Assembly: GCF_046105845.1 (NCBI RefSeq) | Contig: NZ_CP151004.1 | Source: Escherichia coli | Lineage (GTDB): Bacteria; Pseudomonadota; Gammaproteobacteria; Enterobacterales; Enterobacteriaceae | Length of the DNA stretch: 64,000 nucleotides | Reading direction: 5' to 3' (one strand) | Shown here: one piece after another, positions 5,156 through 50,428 of the stretch | Numbering within the stretch: the first letter of the stretch is position 1 | Layout of the letters: every line of letters begins with the position of its first letter | Program-made: the position numbers and the translations under genes | Notes under the pieces: model-generated | What the model saw: the letters and a program-made list of their open reading frames with translations, nothing else | What the model was told of the DNA's origin: nothing | Database searches by the model: none

Positions 5156-5338
5156 GATAATACTCCTGACAAGGTGACTGGACTTCCAGTAACGAACTAA
5201 TAACAGCGCATAGTGTAAGAGGGAACGCGGCGACTGGCTTAACTATTCACATGAATTAAACTAATCAAAAACCGCGATTTAACTAATATTGCGATGATTG
5301 TCTCAAGTAGTGTTTTGTAGATGTAAAGATAAGTATAG

Positions 5339-12340: not shown

Positions 12341-14026
12341 TTGAAGAAGGTTTGGCTTAACCGTTATCCCGCGGACGTTCCGACGGAGATCAACCCTGAC
12401 CGTTATCAATCTCTGGTAGATATGTTTGAGCAGTCGGTCGCGCGCTACGCCGATCAACCCGCGTTTGTGAATATGGGGGAGGTGATGACCTTCCGCAAAC
12501 TGGAAGAACGCAGTCGCGCGTTTGCCGCTTATTTGCAACAAGGGTTGGGGCTGAAGAAAGGCGATCGCGTTGCGTTGATGATGCCTAATTTATTGCAATA
12601 TCCGGTGGCGCTGTTTGGCATTTTGCGTGCCGGGATGATTGTCGTAAACGTTAACCCGTTGTATACCCCGCGTGAACTTGAGCATCAGCTTAACGATAGC
12701 GGCGCATCGGCGATTGTTATCGTGTCTAACTTTGCCCACACTCTGGAAAAAGTGGTTGATAAAACTGCTGTTCAGCACGTTATTTTGACCCGTATGGGCG
12801 ATCAGCTATCTACGGCAAAAGGCACAGTAGTCAACTTCGTTGTTAAATACATCAAGCGTCTGGTGCCGAAATACCATCTGCCAGATGCCATTTCATTTCG
12901 TAGCGCCCTGCACAACGGCTACCGGATGCAGTACGTCAAACCCGAACTGGTGCCGGAAGATTTAGCTTTCCTGCAATACACCGGCGGTACCACTGGTGTG
13001 GCGAAAGGCGCGATGCTGACTCACCGCAATATGCTGGCGAACCTGGAACAGGTTAACGCGACCTATGGTCCGCTGTTGCATCCGGGCAAAGAGCTGGTGG
13101 TGACGGCGCTGCCGCTGTATCACATTTTTGCACTGACCATTAACTGCCTGCTGTTTATCGAACTGGGTGGGCAGAACCTGCTTATCACTAACCCGCGCGA
13201 TATTCCAGGGTTGGTAAAAGAGTTAGCGAAATATCCGTTTACCGCTATCACTGGCGTTAACACTTTGTTCAATGCGTTGCTGAACAATAAAGAGTTCCAG
13301 CAGCTGGATTTCTCCAGTCTGCATCTTTCCGCAGGCGGAGGGATGCCTGTTCAGCAAGTGGTGGCAGAACGTTGGGTGAAACTGACTGGACAGTATCTGC
13401 TGGAAGGTTATGGCCTGACCGAGTGTGCGCCGCTGGTCAGCGTTAACCCGTATGATATTGATTATCATAGCGGTAGCATCGGTTTGCCGGTGCCATCGAC
13501 GGAAGCCAAACTGGTGGATGACGACGACAACGAAGTACCACCGGGTCAACCGGGTGAGCTTTGTGTCAAAGGACCGCAGGTGATGCTGGGTTACTGGCAG
13601 CGTCCGGATGCTACCGATGAAATCATCAAAAATGGCTGGTTACACACCGGCGACATCGCGGTGATGGATGAAGAAGGATTCCTGCGTATTGTCGATCGCA
13701 AAAAAGACATGATTCTGGTTTCCGGTTTTAACGTCTATCCCAACGAGATTGAAGATGTCGTCATGCAGCATCCTGGCGTACAGGAAGTCGCGGCTGTTGG
13801 CGTACCTTCTGGCTCCAGTGGTGAAGCGGTGAAAATCTTCGTAGTGAAAAAAGATCCATCGCTTACCGAAGAGTCACTGGTGACCTTTTGCCGCCGTCAG
13901 CTCACGGGCTACAAAGTACCGAAGCTGGTGGAGTTTCGTGATGAGTTACCGAAATCTAACGTCGGAAAAATTTTGCGACGAGAATTACGTGACGAAGCGC
14001 GCGGCAAAGTGGACAATAAAGCCTGA
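12341..14026 (+). CDS. fadD: Long-chain fatty acid-CoA ligase
   Basis: Track ORF 12275..14026; start set to in-frame TTG ([14 protein letters not shown]) giving the remembered 561-aa FadD; AMP-binding motif [12 protein letters not shown]. Confidence 0.9.
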
Positions 14027-14046
14027 GCGTTAAGTCAGTCGTCAGA

Positions 14047-14071
14047 CGCCGGTTAATCCGGCGTTTTTTTT
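14047..14071 (+). terminator. Rho-independent terminator of fadD
   Basis: Stem CGCCGG/CCGGCG with loop TTAAT followed by a run of 8 T, about 20 nt after the fadD stop. Confidence 0.6.
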
Positions 14072-14095
14072 GACGCCCACTAAAGAGAATACAAT

Positions 14096-15223
14096 TTGAA
14101 TTACCAAATGATTACCACGGACGATGCGCTGGCTTCTTTGTGTGAAGCCGTCCGTGCCTTTCCGGCGATAGCCCTGGATACTGAATTTGTTCGTACGCGC
14201 ACTTATTACCCGCAGCTGGGGTTGATTCAACTTTTCGATGGCGAGCATCTGGCGCTAATCGATCCACTCGGGATCACCGACTGGTCACCGCTGAAAGCGA
14301 TCCTGCGCGATCCGTCCATCACAAAATTTCTCCATGCAGGCAGTGAAGATCTGGAAGTGTTCCTCAATGTCTTTGGCGAATTACCACAACCCCTGATTGA
14401 CACGCAAATCCTTGCTGCCTTCTGCGGACGCCCGATGTCATGGGGTTTCGCTTCCATGGTGGAAGAGTATTCCGGCGTTACGCTGGACAAGAGTGAATCG
14501 CGCACCGACTGGCTGGCCAGACCGCTGACCGAACGTCAGTGTGAATACGCAGCGGCGGATGTCTGGTATCTGTTACCGATCACCGCAAAGCTTATGGTAG
14601 AAACGGAGGCCTCCGGCTGGCTACCTGCGGCGCTGGATGAATGCCGCCTGATGCAAATGCGTCGTCAGGAAGTCGTTGCTCCGGAAGATGCCTGGCGTGA
14701 TATCACCAATGCCTGGCAGTTACGCACACGCCAACTGGCCTGTCTGCAACTGTTAGCCGACTGGCGACTGCGCAAGGCTCGGGAGCGCGATCTGGCAGTG
14801 AACTTTGTCGTGCGTGAAGAGCATTTGTGGTCCGTAGCGCGTTATATGCCGGGAAGTTTAGGCGAACTGGACAGCCTGGGCTTATCCGGTAGCGAAATCC
14901 GCTTTCACGGTAAAACGCTGCTGGCGCTGGTGGAAAAAGCGCAGGCATTGCCGGAAGAGGCCTTACCGCAGCCGATGCTTAACCTGATGGACATGCCGGG
15001 TTATCGTAAAGCGTTTAAAGCGATTAAGTCGTTGATTACTGACGTGAGCGAAACGCACAAGATCAGCGCCGAATTGCTGGCATCGCGTCGGCAAATCAAC
15101 CAACTGCTGAACTGGCACTGGAAACTGAAACCGCAGAATAATTTGCCGGAGCTGATTTCCGGCTGGCGTGGTGAGCTGATGGCGGAAGCATTACACAATT
15201 TATTGCAGGAATATCCGCAGTAA
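14096..15223 (+). CDS. rnd: Ribonuclease D
   Basis: 375-aa ORF beginning MNYQMITTDDALASL; initiation codon is TTG. Confidence 0.9.
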   Translation: MNYQMITTDDALASLCEAVRAFPAIALDTEFVRTRTYYPQLGLIQLFDGEHLALIDPLGITDWSPLKAILRDPSITKFLHAGSEDLEVFLNVFGELPQPLIDTQILAAFCGRPMSWGFASMVEEYSGVTLDKSESRTDWLARPLTERQCEYAAADVWYLLPITAKLMVETEASGWLPAALDECRLMQMRRQEVVAPEDAWRDITNAWQLRTRQLACLQLLADWRLRKARERDLAVNFVVREEHLWSVARYMPGSLGELDSLGLSGSEIRFHGKTLLALVEKAQALPEEALPQPMLNLMDMPGYRKAFKAIKSLITDVSETHKISAELLASRRQINQLLNWHWKLKPQNNLPELISGWRGELMAEALHNLLQEYPQ

Positions 15224-40299: not shown

Positions 40300-40340
40300 A
40301 AAAACGATTCAGCAACTTATTCCACAGGAGCGGAAAAATT

Positions 40341-40613
40341 ATGAATCTTGATGACATTATCAACAGCATGACGCCTGAGGTATACCAGCGTTTGTCGACC
40401 GCCGTTGAACTGGGGAAATGGCCTGATGGCGTTGCGTTGACCGAGGAACAAAAAGAGAACTGCCTGCAACTGGTGATGCTGTGGCAAGCCCGCCATAATA
40501 CCGAAGCACAGCATATGACAATTGACACAAATGGTCAGATGGTTATGAAGAGCAAACAGCAGTTAAAAGAAGATTTTGGTATCTCAGCAAAGCCGATTGC
40601 CATGTTTAAGTAA
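40341..40613 (+). CDS. yeaC: DUF1315-family protein
   Basis: Track ORF starts at TTG 40296; start moved to MNLDDIINSM giving 90 aa. Confidence 0.8.
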   Translation: MNLDDIINSMTPEVYQRLSTAVELGKWPDGVALTEEQKENCLQLVMLWQARHNTEAQHMTIDTNGQMVMKSKQQLKEDFGISAKPIAMFK

Positions 40614-40982
40614 GTGGTTTGTCCCCTTTTTGCCGCGGCTATGAAGGGGATAGCCAACAATGACCCCACGACTCATCTCAATTATCTCGCCATGACCTGG
40701 CTAAGTCCCAGTCCGATCTCTTGCCGTCGCGTTCACGCCTGAATGACTTCTCCTGAACTTAAGTCTCAGACCTATTTGGCCGGTAATCCCTCTCGAATTT
40801 GCTCTTTTTGCGTTCCGCCTTCCACCAACCTGTAACAGACCCAGCCATTTTCTGCGTAATTGTGATCTGAGTTGTAAAACGCAGATCATTATCTGTGTTT
40901 TACAGATTTAATGTTGACCTCAAAAATCATGTGGGTAAGTATGATGACCATCTAAGCAAAACAAAACACAGAGGATGACGCA

Positions 40983-42059
40983 ATGAAAGCACTGGCTCGG
41001 TTTGGCAAAGCCTTTGGCGGCTACAAGATGATCGATGTCCCACAACCCATTTGTGGCCCGGAAGATGTAGTGATTGAAATTAAAGCCGCGGCAATCTGCG
41101 GCGCAGACATGAAGCACTACAATGTCGATAGCGGTTCTGATGAGTTTAACTCTATCCGCGGCCATGAGTTCGCAGGTTGTATTGCGCAGGTTGGTGAAAA
41201 AGTCAAAGACTGGAAAGTGGGGCAACGCGTCGTGTCAGATAACAGCGGTCACGTCTGCGGCGTTTGTCCGGCCTGTGAACAAGGTGATTTTCTGTGTTGT
41301 ACAGAAAAAGTAAACCTTGGTCTGGATAACAATACCTGGGGCGGTGGTTTTTCCAAATATTGTCTGGTTCCTGGTGAAATTCTCAAAATTCATCGTCATG
41401 CGTTGTGGGAAATCCCTGATGGTGTTGATTATGAGGACGCAGCCGTACTTGACCCTATCTGTAATGCCTACAAATCCATCGCGCAGCAATCGAAATTCCT
41501 TCCTGGTCAGGATGTGGTCGTCATCGGCACTGGCCCACTCGGGCTGTTCTCCGTACAAATGGCGCGGATTATGGGGGCGGTAAATATCGTCGTCGTTGGT
41601 CTGCAAGAAGATGTGGCGGTCCGCTTTCCGGTTGCAAAAGAACTGGGTGCGACGGCTGTAGTAAATGGTTCTACCGAAGATGTGGTGGCGCGCTGCCAGC
41701 AAATTTGTGGCAAAGACAATCTGGGACTGGTGATTGAATGCTCCGGTGCCAATATCGCACTGAAACAAGCCATCGAAATGCTCCGTCCGAACGGGGAAGT
41801 GGTACGCGTTGGAATGGGCTTCAAACCTCTTGATTTCTCGATTAATGACATTACCGCCTGGAACAAAAGCATCATTGGGCATATGGCCTATGACTCCACC
41901 TCATGGCGTAACGCTCTCCGGCTATTAGCCAGCGGCGCTATCAAAGTCAAACCGATGATCACGCATCGTATCGGCCTGTCGCAATGGCGCGAAGGGTTTG
42001 AAGCGATGGTCGATAAAACCGCAATCAAAGTGATCATGACTTACGACTTTGATGAATAA
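40983..42059 (+). CDS. ydjL: Zn-dependent alcohol/polyol dehydrogenase (MDR family)
   Basis: 358-aa ORF; Zn-ligand Cys cluster and GxGxxG. Confidence 0.85.
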   Translation: MKALARFGKAFGGYKMIDVPQPICGPEDVVIEIKAAAICGADMKHYNVDSGSDEFNSIRGHEFAGCIAQVGEKVKDWKVGQRVVSDNSGHVCGVCPACEQGDFLCCTEKVNLGLDNNTWGGGFSKYCLVPGEILKIHRHALWEIPDGVDYEDAAVLDPICNAYKSIAQQSKFLPGQDVVVIGTGPLGLFSVQMARIMGAVNIVVVGLQEDVAVRFPVAKELGATAVVNGSTEDVVARCQQICGKDNLGLVIECSGANIALKQAIEMLRPNGEVVRVGMGFKPLDFSINDITAWNKSIIGHMAYDSTSWRNALRLLASGAIKVKPMITHRIGLSQWREGFEAMVDKTAIKVIMTYDFDE

Positions 42060-42085
42060 CTACTCTCCTGAAGGAACGTTATCGC

Positions 42086-43465
42086 ATGGAACAGATAACA
42101 AAACCGCATTGTGGTGCACGGCTGGATCGCTTACCGGATTGCCGCTGGCATTCGTCAATGTTTGCTATCGTCGCGTTTGGCTTGCTTGTCTGCTGGAGTA
42201 ATGCCGTTGGTGGCTTGATCCTCGCGCAGCTGAAAGAGTTGGGCTGGACAGATAATTCCACCACTGCCACATTCTCAGCAATCACGACCGCCGGAATGTT
42301 TCTCGGTGCGCTGGTTGGCGGCATCATCGGTGACAAAACCGGTCGCAGAAATGCGTTCATCCTCTATGAGGCCATTCATATTGCCTCGATGATGGTCGGT
42401 GCTTTTTCACCGAATATGGATTTCCTTATTGCCTGCCGTTTTGTGATGGGCGTTGGGCTGGGAGCTTTACTGGTGACGCTGTTTGCTGGGTTCACCGAAT
42501 ATATGCCCGGTAGAAATCGCGGAACGTGGTCCAGTCGGGTTTCCTTTATTGGCAACTGGTCATATCCGCTCTGTTCATTGATTGCGATGGGACTCACGCC
42601 GCTGATTAGTGCTGAGTGGAACTGGCGGGTACAACTGCTTATCCCTGCAATATTGTCGCTTATCGCTACGGCGCTGGCCTGGCGCTACTTTCCTGAATCC
42701 CCGCGCTGGCTGGAATCGCGCGGACGGTATCAGGAAGCCGAGAAAGTCATGCGGAGTATAGAAGAAGGCGTCATACGCCAGACGGGTAAACCTTTGCCGC
42801 CCGTGGTTATTGCTGATGACGGTAAAGCGCCACAAGCGGTGCCGTATTCAGCCTTACTGACAGGAGTATTACTGAAACGCGTGATATTAGGTTCTTGTGT
42901 GCTGATTGCCATGAACGTTGTGCAGTACACACTAATTAACTGGTTGCCAACGATATTCATGACCCAGGGGATTAATTTAAAAGACTCGATTGTTTTAAAT
43001 ACCATGAGTATGTTTGGTGCGCCATTTGGTATTTTTATTGCCATGCTGGTGATGGATAAAATTCCGCGTAAAACAATGGGTGTGGGGCTATTAATCCTGA
43101 TTGCGGTGCTCGGATATATCTATTCACTGCAAACCAGTATGTTGCTCATAACGCTGATTGGTTTCTTCCTGATTACTTTCGTCTATATGTACGTTTGCTA
43201 TGCCTCGGCAGTGTATGTCCCTGAGATCTGGCCGACAGAGGCCAAATTACGTGGCTCCGGTCTGGCGAATGCAGTAGGGCGAATCAGTGGTATTGCCGCA
43301 CCTTATGCCGTTGCAGTGCTGCTCAGTAGTTATGGCGTAACGGGAGTCTTTATTCTTCTGGGGGCGGTTTCAATTATTGTCGCAATTGCTATCGCCACCA
43401 TTGGAATTGAAACCAAAGGTGTCTCCGTTGAAAGTTTAAGTATTGATGCAGTAGTCAATAAATAA
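42086..43465 (+). CDS. ydjK: MFS sugar transporter
   Basis: 459-aa polytopic ORF. Confidence 0.85.
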   Translation: MEQITKPHCGARLDRLPDCRWHSSMFAIVAFGLLVCWSNAVGGLILAQLKELGWTDNSTTATFSAITTAGMFLGALVGGIIGDKTGRRNAFILYEAIHIASMMVGAFSPNMDFLIACRFVMGVGLGALLVTLFAGFTEYMPGRNRGTWSSRVSFIGNWSYPLCSLIAMGLTPLISAEWNWRVQLLIPAILSLIATALAWRYFPESPRWLESRGRYQEAEKVMRSIEEGVIRQTGKPLPPVVIADDGKAPQAVPYSALLTGVLLKRVILGSCVLIAMNVVQYTLINWLPTIFMTQGINLKDSIVLNTMSMFGAPFGIFIAMLVMDKIPRKTMGVGLLILIAVLGYIYSLQTSMLLITLIGFFLITFVYMYVCYASAVYVPEIWPTEAKLRGSGLANAVGRISGIAAPYAVAVLLSSYGVTGVFILLGAVSIIVAIAIATIGIETKGVSVESLSIDAVVNK

Positions 43466-43481
43466 TACTGGTGGATTCAAA

Positions 43482-44525
43482 ATGAAAAATTCAAAAGCAA
43501 TATTGCAGGTGCCGGGCACAATGAAAATTATTTCAGCAGAAATACCTGTGCCTAAAGAAGATGAAGTTTTGATTAAAGTAGAATATGTCGGTATTTGTGG
43601 TTCAGATGTACATGGTTTTGAATCAGGCCCGTTTATTCCGCCTAAAGACCCAAATCAAGAAATTGGCCTGGGACATGAATGCGCCGGGACGGTTGTGGTT
43701 GTGGGAAGCCGTGTGCGCAAATTTAAAGCGGGGGATCGGGTAAATATCGAACCTGGCGTTCCTTGCGGTCACTGTCGTTACTGTCTGGAAGGCAAATATA
43801 ACATCTGCCCGGACGTTGATTTTATGGCGACACAACCTAACTACCGCGGCGCATTAACGCACTATCTGTGTCATCCGGAGAGCTTTACTTACAAACTGCC
43901 CGACAATATGGACACGATGGAAGGGGCGCTGGTGGAGCCTGCCGCAGTCGGGATGCATGCCGCGATGCTGGCAGATGTTAAACCGGGTAAGAAGATAATT
44001 ATTCTGGGAGCGGGTTGTATTGGTTTGATGACGTTGCAAGCGTGCAAATGCCTGGGAGCTACGGATATTGCCGTCGTTGATGTACTGGAAAAACGTCTGA
44101 CAATGGCGGAACAGCTCGGCGCGACAGTAGTTATTAACGGCGCAAAAGAAGACACTATTGCACGCTGTCAGCAATTTACTGAAGAAATGGGCGCAGATAT
44201 TGTTTTCGAAACAGCGGGTTCTGCGGTCACCGTTAAACAGGCACCTTATCTGGTAATGCGCGGCGGTAAAATTATGATTGTTGGTACTGTACCGGGCGAT
44301 TCGGCAATCAATTTCCTCAAAATCAATCGCGAAGTCACTATTCAGACAGTATTCCGCTATGCCAATCGTTATCCTGTCACGATTGAAGCTATTTCCTCAG
44401 GGCGATTCGATGTGAAATCGATGGTGACACATATTTACGATTATCAGGATGTACAACAGGCATTTGAAGAGTCGGTTAACAACAAACGCGACATTATTAA
44501 AGGCGTTATTAAAATTAGCGATTAA
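43482..44525 (+). CDS. ydjJ: Zn-dependent dehydrogenase (MDR family)
   Basis: 347-aa ORF; structural-Zn motif CGHCRYC. Confidence 0.85.
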   Translation: MKNSKAILQVPGTMKIISAEIPVPKEDEVLIKVEYVGICGSDVHGFESGPFIPPKDPNQEIGLGHECAGTVVVVGSRVRKFKAGDRVNIEPGVPCGHCRYCLEGKYNICPDVDFMATQPNYRGALTHYLCHPESFTYKLPDNMDTMEGALVEPAAVGMHAAMLADVKPGKKIIILGAGCIGLMTLQACKCLGATDIAVVDVLEKRLTMAEQLGATVVINGAKEDTIARCQQFTEEMGADIVFETAGSAVTVKQAPYLVMRGGKIMIVGTVPGDSAINFLKINREVTIQTVFRYANRYPVTIEAISSGRFDVKSMVTHIYDYQDVQQAFEESVNNKRDIIKGVIKISD

Positions 44526-44545
44526 TTAATACGGGAGAACAGAAT

Positions 44546-45382
44546 ATGCTCGCAGATATCAGATATTGGGAAAACGATGCCACAAATAAACATTATGCAA
44601 TTGCCCATTTTAACGTATGGAATGCAGAAATGTTGATGGGCGTTATCGACGCAGCCGAAGAAGCGAAATCACCGGTTATTATTTCTTTTGGTACAGGTTT
44701 TGTCGGCAACACCTCATTTGAAGATTTCTCTCACATGATGGTATCAATGGCACAAAAAGCAACGGTGCCGGTAATAACTCATTGGGATCATGGTCGGAGT
44801 ATGGAGATTATTCATAACGCCTGGACTCATGGTATGAATTCACTAATGCGTGATGCTTCCGCGTTTGATTTCGAAGAAAATATTCGTTTAACCAAAGAGG
44901 CTGTTGATTTTTTCCATCCGCTGGGTATTCCGGTAGAGGCGGAATTAGGGCATGTCGGTAATGAAACCGTTTATGAGGAAGCTCTGGCGGGCTATCACTA
45001 TACCGATCCTGACCAGGCGGCTGAATTTGTTGAACGTACGGGCTGTGACTCATTGGCTGTCGCCATCGGCAACCAGCATGGGGTTTATACGTCAGAGCCA
45101 CAATTGAACTTTGAGGTCGTCAAACGCGTACGCGATGCCGTTTCTGTTCCGCTGGTTTTGCACGGTGCATCGGGGATCAGTGATGCCGACATTAAAACTG
45201 CAATTTCGTTGGGTATCGCGAAAATCAACATTCATACGGAGCTCTGTCAGGCCGCAATGGTAGCAGTGAAAGAAAACCAGGATCAGCCTTTCCTGCATTT
45301 AGAACGTGAAGTACGTAAAGCTGTAAAAGAACGGGCATTGGAAAAAATTAAACTGTTCGGTTCTGATGGCAAAGCGGAATAA
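44546..45382 (+). CDS. ydjI: Class II (metal-dependent) aldolase
   Basis: 278-aa ORF, tagatose/fructose-bisphosphate aldolase-like. Confidence 0.85.
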   Translation: MLADIRYWENDATNKHYAIAHFNVWNAEMLMGVIDAAEEAKSPVIISFGTGFVGNTSFEDFSHMMVSMAQKATVPVITHWDHGRSMEIIHNAWTHGMNSLMRDASAFDFEENIRLTKEAVDFFHPLGIPVEAELGHVGNETVYEEALAGYHYTDPDQAAEFVERTGCDSLAVAIGNQHGVYTSEPQLNFEVVKRVRDAVSVPLVLHGASGISDADIKTAISLGIAKINIHTELCQAAMVAVKENQDQPFLHLEREVRKAVKERALEKIKLFGSDGKAE

Positions 45383-45386
45383 TGAT

Positions 45387-46334
45387 ATGGATAATCTCGA
45401 CGTTATTTGTATAGGTGCCGCTATTGTTGATATTCCATTGCAACCGGTCAGTAAAAATATCTTTGATGTGGATTCTTATCCTCTTGAAAGAATCGCAATG
45501 ACCACCGGGGGTGATGCAATAAATGAAGCAACAATTATTTCTCGTCTGGGCCATCGCACAGCATTAATGAGTCGTATTGGTAAAGATGCCGCCGGGCAAT
45601 TTATTCTCGACCATTGCCGCAAAGAGAATATTGATATTCAAAGCCTGAAGCAGGACGTCAGCATAGATACCTCTATTAACGTTGGACTGGTGACGGAGGA
45701 TGGCGAGCGGACGTTTGTCACAAACCGTAACGGCAGTCTGTGGAAATTGAATATTGACGATGTTGATTTTGCGCGGTTTTCTCAGGCGAAATTATTATCA
45801 CTGGCCAGTATTTTCAACAGTCCCCTATTGGATGGTAAAGCGCTAACAGAAATTTTTACGCAAGCTAAAGCCCAGCAGATGATTATCTGTGCCGATATGA
45901 TCAAACCGCGGTTGAATGAAACGCTGGATGATATTTGCGAAGCATTGAGTTATGTCGATTATCTGTTTCCTAATTTTGCCGAGGCAAAATTACTCACCGG
46001 GAAAGAGACACTGGATGAAATTGCTGACTGCTTTCTTGCGTGCGGCGTAAAAACGGTGGTGATTAAAACGGGTAAAGACGGCTGCTTTATCAAGCGTGGT
46101 GACATGACGATGAAGGTGCCGGCGGTCGCAGGAATAACCGCCATCGACACTATTGGCGCAGGCGATAACTTTGCTTCTGGCTTTATAGCGGCTCTGTTAG
46201 AAGGCAAAAATCTGCGTGAATGCGCACGCTTTGCCAATGCAACGGCGGCTATCTCGGTTCTAAGCGTCGGTGCCACCACCGGCGTAAAAAACAGAAAGCT
46301 GGTCGAACAATTGCTGGAAGAATACGAAGGATAA
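45387..46334 (+). CDS. ydjH: PfkB-family sugar kinase
   Basis: Track ORF 45366..46334; start moved to Met8 (MDNLDVICIGAAIVD) giving 315 aa; C-terminal GAGDNF motif. Confidence 0.85.
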   Translation: MDNLDVICIGAAIVDIPLQPVSKNIFDVDSYPLERIAMTTGGDAINEATIISRLGHRTALMSRIGKDAAGQFILDHCRKENIDIQSLKQDVSIDTSINVGLVTEDGERTFVTNRNGSLWKLNIDDVDFARFSQAKLLSLASIFNSPLLDGKALTEIFTQAKAQQMIICADMIKPRLNETLDDICEALSYVDYLFPNFAEAKLLTGKETLDEIADCFLACGVKTVVIKTGKDGCFIKRGDMTMKVPAVAGITAIDTIGAGDNFASGFIAALLEGKNLRECARFANATAAISVLSVGATTGVKNRKLVEQLLEEYEG

Positions 46335-46343
46335 TGAAGGCAA

Positions 46344-47324
46344 ATGAAAAAGATACCTTTAGGCACAACGGATATTACGCTTTCACGAATGGGGTTGGGG
46401 ACATGGGCCATTGGCGGCGGTCCTGCATGGAATGGCGATCTCGATCGGCAAATATGTATTGATACGATTCTTGAAGCCCATCGTTGTGGCATTAATCTGA
46501 TTGATACTGCGCCAGGATATAACTTTGGCAATAGTGAAGTTATCGTCGGTCAGGCGTTAAAAAAACTGCCTCGTGAACAGGTTGTAGTAGAAACCAAATG
46601 CGGCATTGTCTGGGAACGAAAAGGAAGTTTATTCAACAAAGTTGGCGATCGGCAGTTGTATAAAAACCTTTCCCCGGAATCTATCCGCGAAGAGGTAGAA
46701 GCCAGCTTGCAACGTCTGGGTATTGATTACATCGATATCTACATGACGCACTGGCAGTCGGTGCCGCCATTTTTTACGCCGATCGCTGAAACTGTCGCAG
46801 TGCTCAATGAGTTAAAGGCCGAAGGGAAAATTCGCGCTATAGGCGCTGCTAACGTCGATGCTGACCATATCCGCGAGTATCTGCAATATGGTGAACTGGA
46901 TATTATTCAGGCGAAATACAGTGTCCTCGACCGGGCAATGGAAAGCGAACTGCTGCCGCTATGTCGTGATAATGGCATTGTGGTACAGGTTTATTCCCCG
47001 TTAGAGCAGGGATTGTTGACCGGCACCATCACGCGTGATTACGTTCCGGGCGGCGCTCGGGCAAATAAAGTCTGGTTCCAGCGTGAAAACATGCTGAAAG
47101 TGATTGATATGCTTGAACAGTGGCAGCCACTCTGTGCTCGTTATCAGTGCACAATTCCCACTCTGGCACTGGCGTGGATATTAAAACAGAGTGATTTAAT
47201 CTCCATTCTTAGTGGGGCTACTGCACCGGAACAGGTACGCGAAAATGTCGCGGCATTGAATATCAACTTATCGGATGCAGACGCAACATTGATGAGGGAA
47301 ATGGCAGAGGCCCTGGAGCGTTAA
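46344..47324 (+). CDS. ydjG: Aldo-keto reductase (NADH-dependent)
   Basis: 326-aa ORF. Confidence 0.85.
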   Translation: MKKIPLGTTDITLSRMGLGTWAIGGGPAWNGDLDRQICIDTILEAHRCGINLIDTAPGYNFGNSEVIVGQALKKLPREQVVVETKCGIVWERKGSLFNKVGDRQLYKNLSPESIREEVEASLQRLGIDYIDIYMTHWQSVPPFFTPIAETVAVLNELKAEGKIRAIGAANVDADHIREYLQYGELDIIQAKYSVLDRAMESELLPLCRDNGIVVQVYSPLEQGLLTGTITRDYVPGGARANKVWFQRENMLKVIDMLEQWQPLCARYQCTIPTLALAWILKQSDLISILSGATAPEQVRENVAALNINLSDADATLMREMAEALER

Positions 47325-47460
47325 ATACTCAACACGATTCACCTCTGTTTCTGTGAAAACTGTGATGAAAATCTGTGATTCAAACAGGTTATTTTGAAAG
47401 TAAACATCGGTTATGCGATAATCGCGCTAATGTGATGTAAAAAGATACAGGGGTGTAATC

Positions 47461-48219
47461 GTGGCGGCAAAAGACAGGATTCAGGCAATTAAGCAAATGG
47501 TTGCCAACGATAAAAAGGTGACAGTCTCAAATTTGAGTGGGATTTTTCAGGTAACCGAAGAAACCATTCGCCGCGATCTTGAGAAGCTGGAAGATGAAGG
47601 CTTTTTGACCAGAACCTATGGTGGTGCTGTTTTAAATACAGCGATGTTGACGGAGAATATCCATTTTTATAAGCGCGCTTCATCGTTTTATGAAGAGAAG
47701 CAGCTTATTGCACGCAAGGCACTATCCTTTATCGACAATAAAACCACTATGGCAGCCGATTCCAGTAGTACCGTTATGGAATTGCTCAAATTGTTGCAGG
47801 ACCGTAGTGACCTGACGTTGCTAACTAACTCGGCGGAAGCGATTCATGTTCTGGCTCAATCAGAAATTAAAGTCGTTTCAACGGGGGGGGAACTAAACAA
47901 AAATACACTTTCCCTGCAAGGAAGAATTACTAAAGAGATCATCAGCCGCTACCATGTCGATATCATGGTAATGAGTTGTAAAGGTCTTGATATTAACAGC
48001 GGCGCGCTGGACTCTAACGAAGCGGAAGCTGAAATCAAAAAGACAATGATCCGTCAGGCGACAGAGGTTGCGTTATTGGTTGATCACTCTAAGTTTGATC
48101 GCAAAGCTTTTGTCCAGTTAGCTGACTTTAGTCATATTAATTACATAATAACTGATAAATCACCGGGTGCAGAGTGGATAGCATTTTGCAAAGACAATAA
48201 TATCCAGCTGGTGTGGTAA
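47461..48219 (+). CDS. ydjF: DeoR-family transcriptional regulator
   Basis: 252-aa ORF with GTG start; N-terminal HTH and C-terminal DeoR sugar-binding-type domain. Confidence 0.85.
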   Translation: MAAKDRIQAIKQMVANDKKVTVSNLSGIFQVTEETIRRDLEKLEDEGFLTRTYGGAVLNTAMLTENIHFYKRASSFYEEKQLIARKALSFIDNKTTMAADSSSTVMELLKLLQDRSDLTLLTNSAEAIHVLAQSEIKVVSTGGELNKNTLSLQGRITKEIISRYHVDIMVMSCKGLDINSGALDSNEAEAEIKKTMIRQATEVALLVDHSKFDRKAFVQLADFSHINYIITDKSPGAEWIAFCKDNNIQLVW

Positions 48220-48335
48220 TTTAAGCACACGTTGTCAATATTATTTGTTCCTGCGCCTGGAAATAAAATGATGATAAAGATGCGGCAAGTGAATTTGCCG
48301 CAATTGCTACCTTTTTAGCAAATCCGAGGCACCTA

Positions 48336-49694
48336 ATGGAACAATATGATCAAATTGGCGCAAGACTGGACCGCTTGCCTTTGGCCCGGTTTCATTATCG
48401 TATATTTGGTATTATAAGCTTTAGTCTGTTATTAACGGGTTTTTTGAGTTATTCAGGCAATGTTGTTTTAGCAAAGCTGGTAAGCAATGGATGGTCAAAT
48501 AATTTCCTCAATGCCGCCTTTACCTCGGCATTAATGTTTGGTTATTTCATCGGCTCTCTTACCGGTGGGTTCATCGGTGATTATTTTGGGCGGCGCAGGG
48601 CTTTTCGCATAAATCTTCTCATCGTCGGTATTGCGGCAACAGGGGCCGCTTTTGTCCCTGATATGTACTGGCTCATTTTCTTTCGCTTCCTGATGGGCAC
48701 AGGAATGGGGGCGCTGATTATGGTTGGCTATGCTTCGTTTACGGAGTTTATCCCCGCGACGGTGCGTGGAAAATGGTCCGCGCGGCTGTCATTTGTCGGT
48801 AACTGGTCGCCCATGCTGTCTGCGGCGATAGGCGTGGTGGTTATCGCTTTTTTTAGTTGGCGGATAATGTTTCTGCTGGGTGGTATTGGCATACTGTTAG
48901 CCTGGTTTCTCTCAGGTAAATACTTTATTGAGTCGCCTCGATGGTTGGCGGGGAAAGGGCAAATCGCAGGTGCAGAAAGCCAACTTCGTGAAGTAGAGCA
49001 GCAAATTGAAAGAGAGAAGAGTGTTCGTTTACCCCCGCTTACTTTGAATCAGAGCAACAGCAAGGCTAACGTAATCAATGGTACTTTCTGGCTGCTGTTT
49101 AAAGGGGAAATGTTACGACGTACATTAGTCGCGATTACTGTTTTAATTGCAATGAACATTTCACTTTATACCATCACCGTATGGATACCGACCATATTTG
49201 TTAACTCCGGCATTGATGTCGATAAATCAATATTAATGACTGCTGTTATTATGATTGGCGCTCCGGTAGGAATATTTATTGCGGCATTAATTATTGATCA
49301 TTTTCCTCGTCGATTATTTGGCTCCGCCTTACTTATTATTATTGCCGTGTTAGGCTATATCTATTCAATTCAAACTACAGAGTGGGCGATTTTAATCTAT
49401 GGCCTGGTGATGATCTTCTTTTTATACATGTATGTTTGCTTCGCGTCGGCGGTTTATATCCCGGAGCTTTGGCCAACGCATTTACGCTTGCGCGGTTCGG
49501 GTTTCGTTAATGCCGTCGGACGGATCGTCGCGGTCTTCACGCCTTATGGCGTTGCGGCACTATTAACGCATTATGGGTCAATCACGGTGTTTATGGTGCT
49601 TGGCGTGATGTTAGTGCTCTGTGCGCTGGTCCTCTCCATTTTTGGCATCGAAACGCGGAAGGTGTCATTGGAAGAGATTTCTGAGGTGAATTAA
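48336..49694 (+). CDS. ydjE: MFS transporter, paralogous to ydjK
   Basis: 452-aa polytopic ORF with the same N-terminal motif as YdjK (LDRLP...RFHY). Confidence 0.85.
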   Translation: MEQYDQIGARLDRLPLARFHYRIFGIISFSLLLTGFLSYSGNVVLAKLVSNGWSNNFLNAAFTSALMFGYFIGSLTGGFIGDYFGRRRAFRINLLIVGIAATGAAFVPDMYWLIFFRFLMGTGMGALIMVGYASFTEFIPATVRGKWSARLSFVGNWSPMLSAAIGVVVIAFFSWRIMFLLGGIGILLAWFLSGKYFIESPRWLAGKGQIAGAESQLREVEQQIEREKSVRLPPLTLNQSNSKANVINGTFWLLFKGEMLRRTLVAITVLIAMNISLYTITVWIPTIFVNSGIDVDKSILMTAVIMIGAPVGIFIAALIIDHFPRRLFGSALLIIIAVLGYIYSIQTTEWAILIYGLVMIFFLYMYVCFASAVYIPELWPTHLRLRGSGFVNAVGRIVAVFTPYGVAALLTHYGSITVFMVLGVMLVLCALVLSIFGIETRKVSLEEISEVN

Positions 49695-49786
49695 ATCTTT
49701 CGTTGATGGCGTCAATTGCCAGATGTACCACTGACGTGTTTTATCTGGCCTACAATGGCAGTACAGAATTGTAGGCCAGCATAAAA

Positions 49787-50428
49787 TTACTCCTGCGTCT
49801 CTTCCCAATCTGCCAGCGTATATAGCGTTGCCCCAGCTGCTGACATCTCCATAAACGCGTGCGCACTGTCCTGTGGCTGGATATTCACGCCACGACAACC
49901 ATCGGTAATCACATTAACCTTATAACCTAACTGTAACGCGTCCAGCACGGTAAACTTCACGCAATAGTCAGTAGCCAGGCCCATAATGATCAATTCATCG
50001 ATTTCATGATCGCGTAACCAGTCATCGAGCGTGGTTTTCTGCCGACGGCCGTTATCAAAAAAGGCACTGTAACTGTCAACTAAAGGATTTTCGCCTTTAT
50101 GGAACACCGCTGCGATCGCTTTTTGGTTCAGTAACGGATGTAATTGTGCGCCTTCACTGTTCTGCACACAGTGATCTGGCCAGAAGGTTTGTGGCAAACC
50201 GTCGAGTTGGCCTGGCGTATAAGGCTCTACACCGTGCTGACTGGCAAAACTGCCGTGATTCGCCGGGTGCCAGTCCTGACTGGCGATAACCGCTTCACCG
50301 CGCGACTGGCACCAGTCAATCAGGCGGTTAGCGACATCCACCGTACTGTCACCTTCCGGCACGGCGAGCGCGCCACCAGCACAGAAATCATTTTGTAAAT
50401 CGACCAGTAACAGGGCGCGAGGGGGCAT
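49787..50428 (-). CDS. pncA: Nicotinamidase/pyrazinamidase
   Basis: Track ORF 49787..50446; start moved to MPPRALLLVDLQNDFC giving 213 aa. Confidence 0.9.
   Translation of the reverse strand: MPPRALLLVDLQNDFCAGGALAVPEGDSTVDVANRLIDWCQSRGEAVIASQDWHPANHGSFASQHGVEPYTPGQLDGLPQTFWPDHCVQNSEGAQLHPLLNQKAIAAVFHKGENPLVDSYSAFFDNGRRQKTTLDDWLRDHEIDELIIMGLATDYCVKFTVLDALQLGYKVNVITDGCRGVNIQPQDSAHAFMEMSAAGATLYTLADWEETQE

Follow-up and report, generated by a model that had tools for sequence, protein, structure and literature searches.

We analysed a stretch of 64,000 nucleotides of Escherichia coli DNA (contig NZ_CP151004.1 of assembly GCF_046105845.1; hereafter the window) and found that its positions 40983-49694 hold the already described E. 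coli ydj gene cluster, ydjL to ydjE. We judge it likely that the cluster works as an inducible catabolic module of at least two transcription units, in which an acidic sugar derivative is oxidised, phosphorylated and cleaved under the control of the DeoR-family protein YdjF and of cAMP-CRP; the natural substrate is probably a compound obtainable in the gut whose tail is anionic, of the carboxylate type. As operator of YdjF, a 15-mer inverted repeat, TCTKTG-N3-YAMAGA, appears to be a better candidate than the palindrome that an earlier note on this DNA had proposed, since the 15-mer tracks ydjF across phyla and recurs at the ydjF promoter.

The eight genes are co-directional and intact and stand in the ordinary context between yeaC and pncA, as the earlier note had read them:

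ydjL, 40983-42059, + strand: Zn-dependent medium-chain dehydrogenase (open reading frame, RefSeq and sub-cut-off profile matches)
ydjK, 42086-43465, + strand: MFS transporter (open reading frame, Pfam MFS and Sugar_tr)
ydjJ, 43482-44525, + strand: Zn-dependent medium-chain dehydrogenase (open reading frame and sub-cut-off profile matches)
ydjI, 44546-45382, + strand: class II (metal-dependent) aldolase forming dihydroxyacetone phosphate (DHAP) (identity to PDB 6OFU, TIGR00167)
ydjH, 45387-46334, + strand: PfkB sugar kinase (PDB 3H49/3IN1, Pfam PfkB)
ydjG, 46344-47324, + strand: NADH-dependent aldo-keto reductase (NF049922)
ydjF, 47461-48219, + strand: DeoR-family regulator with a GTG start (Pfam HTH_DeoR and DeoRC)
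ydjE, 48336-49694, + strand: second MFS transporter (open reading frame, 44% identity with YdjK)

The raw ydjH open reading frame begins at 45366, with the called start at 45387, and the GTG start of ydjF is conserved. The short gaps that had been described hold for five junctions (L-K 26, K-J 16, J-I 20, I-H 4 and H-G 9 bp) and fail for ydjG-ydjF (136 bp) and ydjF-ydjE (116 bp); both long gaps contain conserved regulatory sequence. The proposed transcription units would be ydjLKJIHG, ydjF, and ydjE, the last transcribed with ydjF or alone. The word "duplicated" suits the transporters and is weak for the dehydrogenases, YdjL and YdjJ being 28% identical. The closest system we take to be the E. 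coli K-12 ydjLKJIHG-ydjF-ydjE locus (Huddleston and Raushel 2019). It has the same genes, order and flanks; the window copy differs from it in allele and not in kind, and the classification of ydj as a known cluster is unchanged. The allele is a divergent one, 99.1% identical to its best E. coli match and about 97.5-97.9% to most E. coli. In that best match, the RefSeq annotation places these eight genes after yeaC and before pncA. Over 40500-49800, identity of at least 99% was seen in just 6 of 5,425 E. coli genomes.

Profiles, Pfam and RefSeq bore out the family calls of class II aldolase, PfkB kinase, aldo-keto reductase, DeoR regulator and MFS transporter. YdjI exceeds the cut-off of the TIGR00167 class II ketose-bisphosphate aldolase subfamily (325.1 vs 215.6 bits) and falls below every fructose- or tagatose-bisphosphate (FBP/TBP) aldolase equivalog cut-off (best 246.6 vs 343 bits, TIGR01859); it is identical over 278 aa to PDB 6OFU ("YdjI aldolase") and scores 171-186 bits against solved class II aldolases of the FBP/TBP type. 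YdjH matches PDB 3H49/3IN1 over its full length (685 bits) and Pfam PF00294 PfkB over residues 5-300 (E = 5e-74), while reaching no NCBIfam equivalog cut-off. YdjG is above the cut-off of NF049922, the YdjG NADH-dependent methylglyoxal reductase equivalog (627.8 vs 550 bits). YdjF combines an N-terminal PF08220 HTH_DeoR domain (E = 5e-17) with a C-terminal PF00455 DeoRC domain (E = 2.5e-49) and stays under all named NCBIfam equivalog cut-offs; its helix-turn-helix segment, VTEETIRRDLEKLE, is almost invariant among orthologues, much of it being a family-wide signature. YdjK matches Pfam MFS and Sugar_tr, and YdjE has sub-cut-off NCBIfam MFS matches and the RefSeq name "MFS transporter". The call of two medium-chain dehydrogenases (MDR proteins) rests on sub-cut-off NCBIfam matches to Zn-dependent dehydrogenases and on RefSeq annotation: YdjL and YdjJ hit the L-threonine 3-dehydrogenase, scyllo-inosose 3-dehydrogenase and L-idonate 5-dehydrogenase equivalogs, with best scores of 217 (YdjL) and 203 (YdjJ) vs 380 bits.

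The core of the proposed route comes from the work of others. YdjH and YdjI were reportedly characterised in vitro by Huddleston, Raushel and colleagues in 2019 and are said to favour 7-9-carbon 2-ketoses ending in a carboxylate; YdjH is reported to phosphorylate C1 of 2-ketoses, YdjI to interconvert the ketose-1-phosphate with DHAP and an aldehyde, and YdjG to reduce methylglyoxal with NADH, all in vitro. The full route would have five steps: (i) An acidic polyol or sugar acid would be imported by the MFS symporter YdjK and/or YdjE. (ii) YdjL and/or YdjJ, going by their family, would oxidise the carbon beside the terminal CH2OH with NAD+, yielding a 2-ketose. (iii) YdjH would phosphorylate C1, the activity described in vitro. 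(iv) YdjI would split the ketose-1-phosphate into DHAP and a shorter aldehyde-acid, again as described in vitro. (v) The aldehyde would be reduced or oxidised by YdjG or by the second dehydrogenase.

PMC9602453 (2022) gives the preference of YdjH and YdjI as long-chain monosaccharides with a carboxylate terminus, and says of the best in vitro substrate of YdjI, L-glycero-L-galacto-octuluronate, that it "has no natural abundance"; PMC11194214 describes a YdjI reaction of DHAP with L-arabinuronate. The UniRef name for YdjI is "L-glycero-L-galacto-octuluronate-1-phosphate aldolase". The earlier note had described a catabolic pathway with an orphan substrate. The locus does look catabolic; on the biochemistry, that note was out of date, given the 2019 specificities and the crystal structures 6OFU and 3H49/3IN1. 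As to the physiological substrate it was right, for the searchable literature to mid-2026 names no natural ydj substrate. The "YdjH" of an alginate paper was set aside as an Acinetobacter KdgK-like kinase and not the ydj kinase.

Expression data bear on the logic of the module. According to PMC8085971, the ydjLKJIHG promoter binds CRP in electrophoretic mobility shift assays and is activated by CRP. A memory switch driven by the ydjL promoter, off before the bacteria were gavaged, had turned on once they had passed through the mouse gut (30% of colonies on day 2; PMC6561318), and a study cited in that paper found YdjG 3.5-fold higher in the caecum of germ-free mice. Binding and activation by CRP, together with a promoter inactive in vitro but active in the gut of mice, point to a catabolic logic, and the reported induction of YdjG in germ-free mice suggests an inducer derived from diet or host rather than a product of other microbes.

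The cluster is conserved far beyond E. coli. A scan with YdjI, taking one genome per species, yielded 80 loci, and the gene order ydjLKJIHGF is kept in Escherichia, Citrobacter, the Klebsiella oxytoca group, Raoultella, Yokenella, Budvicia, Enterobacillus and Symbiopectobacterium, in many Lachnospiraceae, Clostridium puniceum, Megamonas, Veillonella, Anaerococcus and Erysipelotrichaceae, and in Atopobiaceae, a metagenome-assembled genome of Synergistaceae, and Gilliamella. Cultured carriers include Schaedlerella arabinosiphila DSM 106076 (L037) and Clostridium puniceum DSM 2619 (L028). From Enterobacterales to gut Lachnospiraceae, Erysipelotrichaceae and Atopobiaceae, identity of YdjI and YdjL holds at 75-86%, and the operator motif described below is conserved as well. 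Outside Enterobacterales, YdjI is 73-87% and YdjL 69-86% identical (YdjL about 83% to Lachnospiraceae orthologues), with each cluster at the GC content of its host, over a range of 31-64%. Very recent horizontal transfer was rejected as the cause of the high identity in Firmicutes because the clusters carry host GC; the identity reflects constraint instead, and its persistence while the DNA drifted to host GC argues for one specific, ecologically common compound. The accessory genes are more variable: ydjE is mostly confined to Enterobacterales, a carboxylate-type transporter resembling DctA/GltP/SstT is added after ydjF in 27 loci, many Firmicutes among them, and loci that lack ydjK have an ABC transporter of the Liv/Urt type, in a few cases together with a rhamnulokinase-like kinase. 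No glycoside hydrolase or other give-away enzyme is conserved with the cluster in the 80 loci, where an AlsE-like epimerase and the alternative transporters do recur.

The epimerase bears on whether the substrate is instead an ordinary neutral hexitol or ketohexose, of the sorbitol, galactitol, allitol or allulose type, with the preference for 7-9-carbon acids a side activity. Its gene, inserted in 29 Firmicutes loci, encodes an AlsE/Rpe-like protein resembling D-allulose-6-phosphate 3-epimerase (254.5 bits vs a cut-off of 271), YdjL and YdjJ resemble polyol and aldonate dehydrogenases, and YdjK and YdjE have Sugar_tr matches, all of which speak for a neutral sugar. We nonetheless find it unlikely: substrates with a carboxylate terminus are the ones preferred in vitro (PMC9602453, and the UniRef name), the alternative transporters in other phyla are of the DctA/GltP and Liv/Urt types and not typical sugar transporters, and the cluster occurs in the weakly or non-saccharolytic Veillonella, Anaerococcus and Synergistaceae. 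Moreover, two arginines specific to the orthogroup flank the active site of YdjI. R84 and R102 are invariant in 81 orthologues, and their positions are Ser and Ile/Phe in the aligned FBP/ketose-bisphosphate aldolases of known structure, a pattern that fits a conserved anionic substrate tail. A second alternative, that ydj is mainly a unit for detoxifying aldehydes or methylglyoxal centred on YdjG, draws on the annotation of YdjG as an NADH-dependent methylglyoxal reductase, an activity shown by others. We consider it very improbable, as the kinase, the DHAP-forming aldolase, the two transporters, the DeoR regulator and the activation by CRP make a catabolic pattern and the entire gene set, not ydjG alone, is kept across phyla.

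The operator model comes from the cross-species loci. Words enriched upstream of ydjL in Firmicutes (AACAAAGA, AACACAGA and AAATCTTTGAAACACAGAAA) lie immediately 5' of TTGACA and define the 15-mer inverted repeat given above. In the window, this repeat and its neighbours are found as follows:

40858-40879, unstranded: candidate CRP-type site AATTGTGATCTGAGTTGTAAAA, with a perfect TGTGA left half and a poor right half
40876-40885, + strand: auxiliary half-site AAAACGCAGA, exact match to AAAACRCAGA
40892-40906, unstranded: putative main YdjF operator O1, TCTGTGTTTTACAGA, one mismatch to TCTGTG-N3-CACAGA
40914-40942, + strand: candidate ydjL promoter, with -35 TTGACC at 40914-40919, a 16-17 nt spacer and a weak -10, TAAGTAT, at 40936-40942
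40963-40972, + strand: possible half-site AAAACACAGA, an exact motif match adjoining the ydjL ribosome-binding site
41291-41305, unstranded: intragenic operator-like site O2, TCTGTGTTGTACAGA, inside ydjL, one mismatch, 399 bp from O1
47372-47386, unstranded: operator-like site at the ydjF promoter, TCTGTGATTCAAACA, two mismatches, 7 bp upstream of the -35 in the geometry of O1
47394-47422, + strand: candidate ydjF promoter TTGAAA-17-GATAAT with an upstream TG, the top promoter-like match in the region (10/12), conserved

The 15-mer pattern occurs at 79 sites in the 80 loci, vs 0-5 in block shuffles. Within 320 bp upstream of ydjL lie 43 of them, 19 are inside ydjL and 17 elsewhere; in the Lachnospiraceae loci mapped, the positions of most of the 17 fall in the interval that separates ydjF from the additional DctA-like transporter gene. 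O1 is 7 bp upstream of TTGACC, and the best 15-mer stands exactly 7 bp 5' of a TTGA-type hexamer before ydjL in 39 of the 80 loci, with most others at 6 or 8 bp; the TTGAC of the -35 is invariant in Enterobacterales and reads TTGACA in Firmicutes. A strong site upstream of ydjL accompanies a YdjF orthologue in 44 of 64 loci, vs 4 of the 13 loci that lack one, and three of those four are truncated contigs. The ydjF promoter block with the 47372-47386 site is conserved in all Enterobacterales compared. In L023-L042 the motif recurs at about 13,960-14,190; in the loci mapped, these positions precede the gene for the DctA/GltP-like transporter that follows ydjF in Lachnospiraceae, which would place that transporter in the same putative regulon.

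O2 is under synonymous-site constraint. Among 24 Enterobacterales sequences, third-position variability is lowest in the six-codon windows that cover it (ranks 1-3 of 258; 0.38-0.49 bits vs a mean of 1.14), and the substitutions seen there preserve or improve the motif; the site is an exact consensus at the same position in two of the loci (L005 and L020). O2 is absent from ydjL of Firmicutes.

Conservation upstream of ydjL, in the 22 Enterobacterales upstream regions, begins abruptly near 40858, with a consensus of TTTGTGATCTGAGTTGTGAAATGCAGATC-ATnATCTGTGTTTTAAAGATTT-nnTGTTGACC and then TAAGTAT 16-17 nt on. An invariant element, TGTGATC (22 of 22), belongs to the CRP-type candidate. Compared with TGTGA-N6-TCACA, the left half of this candidate is perfect and invariant and the right half matches at 2 of 5 positions; we infer the exact site at 40858-40879 from sequence, the binding of CRP to the promoter itself being that of PMC8085971. 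Further on, AAAACRCAGA has three exact matches in the 64 kb, all inside 40876-40972, and the half-site AAAACACAGA is partly conserved in other genera, as CACAAAGG.

On grounds of conservation, these elements suggest how the palindrome of the earlier note may be read. That sequence, GATCTGAGTTGTAAAACGCAGATC (GATCTG-N12-CAGATC), was proposed as the DeoR operator; it is an inverted repeat with 11-nt arms (91%), has its single exact match in the window at 40864-40887, and is real, with both arms conserved in most Enterobacterales and CAGAT, the core shared by the repeat family, in the right one. The left arm, GATCTG, overlaps the CRP-type left half TGTGATCT, in a promoter that binds CRP (PMC8085971), and the right arm, CAGATC, lies at the end of the auxiliary half-site AAAACGCAGA, so that the palindrome is unlikely to be an operator as a unit and is probably a by-product of two neighbouring elements. 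The strongest inverted repeat, to which the auxiliary half-site contributes, lies at 40873-40886/40891-40904 (14 nt, 93%). The most distant Enterobacterales (L021 and L022) have lost the right arm while retaining TGTGATC and the 40892-40906 site, and the geometry with a 12-bp spacer is absent both at the ydjF promoter and in Firmicutes, where the motif with the N3 spacer occurs. We thus give little credit to the palindrome itself as the YdjF operator, the better candidate being the 15-mer that starts 5 bp after its end.

Two readings of this region were set aside. A promoter-scan alternative, TTTACA (40899)-17-AAAAAT, was dropped because TTGACC at 40914 is the invariant hexamer. The 16-nt complementarity of 40886-40901 with 40963-40978 was rejected as an RNA helix because its upstream arm precedes the proposed -35, and is read as repeat copies instead. 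Directly after the yeaC stop, a hairpin at 40615-40660 (-21 kcal/mol, z = -3.9) is probably the yeaC terminator, and the roughly 200 bp from it to 40858 are not conserved in other genera.

From these sites we propose that YdjF most likely represses through the 15-bp repeats lying 7 bp upstream of the ydjL -35 and of its own -35. The auxiliary half-sites and O2, 399 bp downstream, may permit cooperative binding or looping. If DeoR, GlpR, FucR and LacR are a guide, the likely inducer would be a phosphorylated intermediate, probably what YdjH makes. Activation by cAMP-CRP would come from a site whose centre lies about 30 bp upstream of O1.

Several points weigh against this scheme. The 2019 work reportedly gives modest catalytic efficiencies, and its best in vitro substrates are not known to occur in nature. 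YdjL, YdjJ, YdjK and YdjE owe their proposed roles to family membership, all four being under every NCBIfam equivalog cut-off. In 20 loci, a YdjF orthologue is present and no strong site is seen upstream of ydjL. The searchable literature holds no experiment on site binding, sign of action or effector of YdjF; the protein was listed as uncharacterised in 2016, and no ChIP-exo (chromatin immunoprecipitation with exonuclease) link to it was found there. Finally, the centre of O1 falls near -50, a little 5' of the -35 and not over the core promoter, a position that would also suit an activator. The DeoR family includes one in FucR, on whose model YdjF scores 138 bits, and the weak -10 of the E. 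coli ydjL promoter would be in keeping with YdjF acting in the same way. Most DeoR-family members, as is generally known, are repressors. The Firmicutes promoters beside the site are near consensus (TTGACA-17-TAAACT or TACTAT), extra half-sites lie there inside the spacer and near the ribosome-binding site, and the same site at the strong promoter of ydjF itself fits negative autoregulation. On sequence grounds these features favour repression by YdjF, and an activator seems to us unlikely.

If YdjF is the repressor we suppose, ydj resembles known multi-operator repression by DeoR and GlpR in having sites upstream of the promoter, at the promoter of the regulator and about 400 bp inside the first gene, and differs in that TCTKTG-N3-YAMAGA is specific to the ydj regulon; for ydj, binding and looping are predictions. 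The pathway likewise has parallels. (i) In the L-fucose and L-rhamnose pathways (FucK/FucA/FucO with FucR; RhaB/RhaD), a 2-ketose is phosphorylated at C1 and cleaved to DHAP and an aldehyde that goes on to be reduced; the ketose-1-phosphate is probably the signal for a regulator of the DeoR family, and expression needs CRP too. In contrast, the ydj kinase is PfkB and not FGGY, its aldolase is class II of the FbaA/GatY kind and not FucA/RhaD, its ketose would come from dehydrogenases and not an isomerase, and its substrate is proposed to be acidic and longer. (ii) Sulfoglycolysis of the Embden-Meyerhof-Parnas type (YihS/YihV/YihT/YihU) shares a 2-ketose with an anionic tail, a PfkB kinase acting at C1, DHAP plus an anionic aldehyde, a reduction, and a DeoR-type regulator (YihW/CsqR), a likeness of pathway logic and not of sequence orthology. 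Its aldolase, however, is class I, its tail a sulfonate and its first step an isomerase. (iii) Aldolases of the GatY, KbaY/AgaY and FbaA types have the fold and metal-binding motif of YdjI, whereas in YdjI R84 and R102 replace Ser and Ile/Phe and, according to the literature, the substrates are ketose-1-phosphates with an acid tail, not bisphosphates.

A bolder reading would make YdjF, its operator and the L-J-I-H-G enzymes one conserved cross-phylum gut regulon that degrades natural 7-9-carbon acidic sugars from the tail end: the penultimate carbon would be oxidised, the terminal CH2OH phosphorylated and DHAP released by aldol cleavage. The compounds may be ulosonic acids of the Kdo (3-deoxy-D-manno-octulosonic acid) or Dha (3-deoxy-D-lyxo-heptulosaric acid) type, or sialic-acid-like compounds, of diet or host origin. 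Seen from its CH2OH end, Kdo may present C3-C5 as left-right-right, as in the best in vitro substrate; this is stereochemical reasoning alone. We offer the proposal as speculation with a low chance of being right.

The two long gaps of the cluster also contain candidate RNA elements:

47341-47352, + strand: 12-nt upstream arm ACCTCTGTTTCT, complementary to the ydjF Shine-Dalgarno region (RNAalifold)
47443-47454, + strand: ydjF Shine-Dalgarno arm AGATACAGGGGT, pairing with 47341-47352
48281-48302, + strand: hairpin between ydjF and ydjE, a terminator-like scan match, GC-rich and conserved (z = -3.5)

The RNA of this region in the window folds at -39.5 kcal/mol (z = -3.84), and the RNAalifold helix of the two arms is retained in 18 genera, mostly through changes from U-A to U-G; true compensatory changes are few. 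ACCTCTGTTTCT is upstream of the ydjF promoter, yet within any transcript that reads through from ydjG. On such transcripts the modelled helix might mask ydjF translation and hold repressor synthesis down; alternatively, the arms may be further protein-binding repeats. In the hairpin between ydjF and ydjE, stem changes look compensatory by eye in Yokenella (L006) and Citrobacter sp. (L016). Lacking a clean T-run, it may act as a partial terminator or serve in RNA processing or stability. A search of 40300-50000 with Rfam 15 gave nothing above threshold; two sub-threshold matches at 49684-49803, near the element resembling a repetitive extragenic palindrome (REP) after ydjE, are to naRNA4 (29 vs 59.5 bits) and to a microRNA model, and are most likely chance or REP-related.

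That element is also the right edge of a presence/absence polymorphism:

49723-49779, unstranded: REP-like hairpin that bounds the 9.1-kb presence/absence segment on its right, where homology with ydj-negative E. coli resumes

Among 5,426 complete E. coli genomes, 4,260 have at least 80% of the ydj segment and about 21% fall below. The ydj-negative genomes sampled (n=6) match at the yeaC end alone; strain H3 has pncA as the next gene after yeaC, with about 88 unrelated bases (L082, 4112-4200) in place of 40612-49722 (9.1 kb). Some carriers (H15, H25 and H32) have IS903B or IS3 insertions, or partial deletions, within the cluster. The roughly one-fifth of E. coli genomes that are cleanly without it are natural controls.

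With two enzymes of described in vitro activity and structure and a promoter that switches on specifically in the mouse gut, ydj is among the better-documented orphan pathways of E. coli. The computational additions made here are useful but incremental: conservation across phyla, a model of the operator, the site inside ydjL, and a polymorphism in which the cluster is either present or cleanly missing. They indicate that many gut Firmicutes and Actinobacteria share the enzyme core and the regulator-operator pair, and, should the operator model hold, YdjF with the ydjL promoter would be usable as a biosensor for the inducer.

We also note some neighbours of ydjL in other genera. A gene for a secreted GH18 chitinase-like protein lies between yeaC and ydjL, transcribed away from ydjL, in Citrobacter, Klebsiella, Raoultella and Yokenella (L006 4906-6219, L007 4446-6164, L011, L012, L013 and L017), in several cases beside a small gene with an HNH motif; both genes are absent from the window and from Escherichia. 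The chitinase-like gene, next to ydjL in some Enterobacteriaceae only, was not treated as a part of the ydj system. In the ydjL leader of 16 Lachnospiraceae loci (L037, at about 5190-5210, and 15 others), a perfect palindrome, GTTTCCGGCCGGAAAC, is conserved between the promoter and the gene; it has no Rfam match and could be the site of a second regulator or an RNA hairpin.

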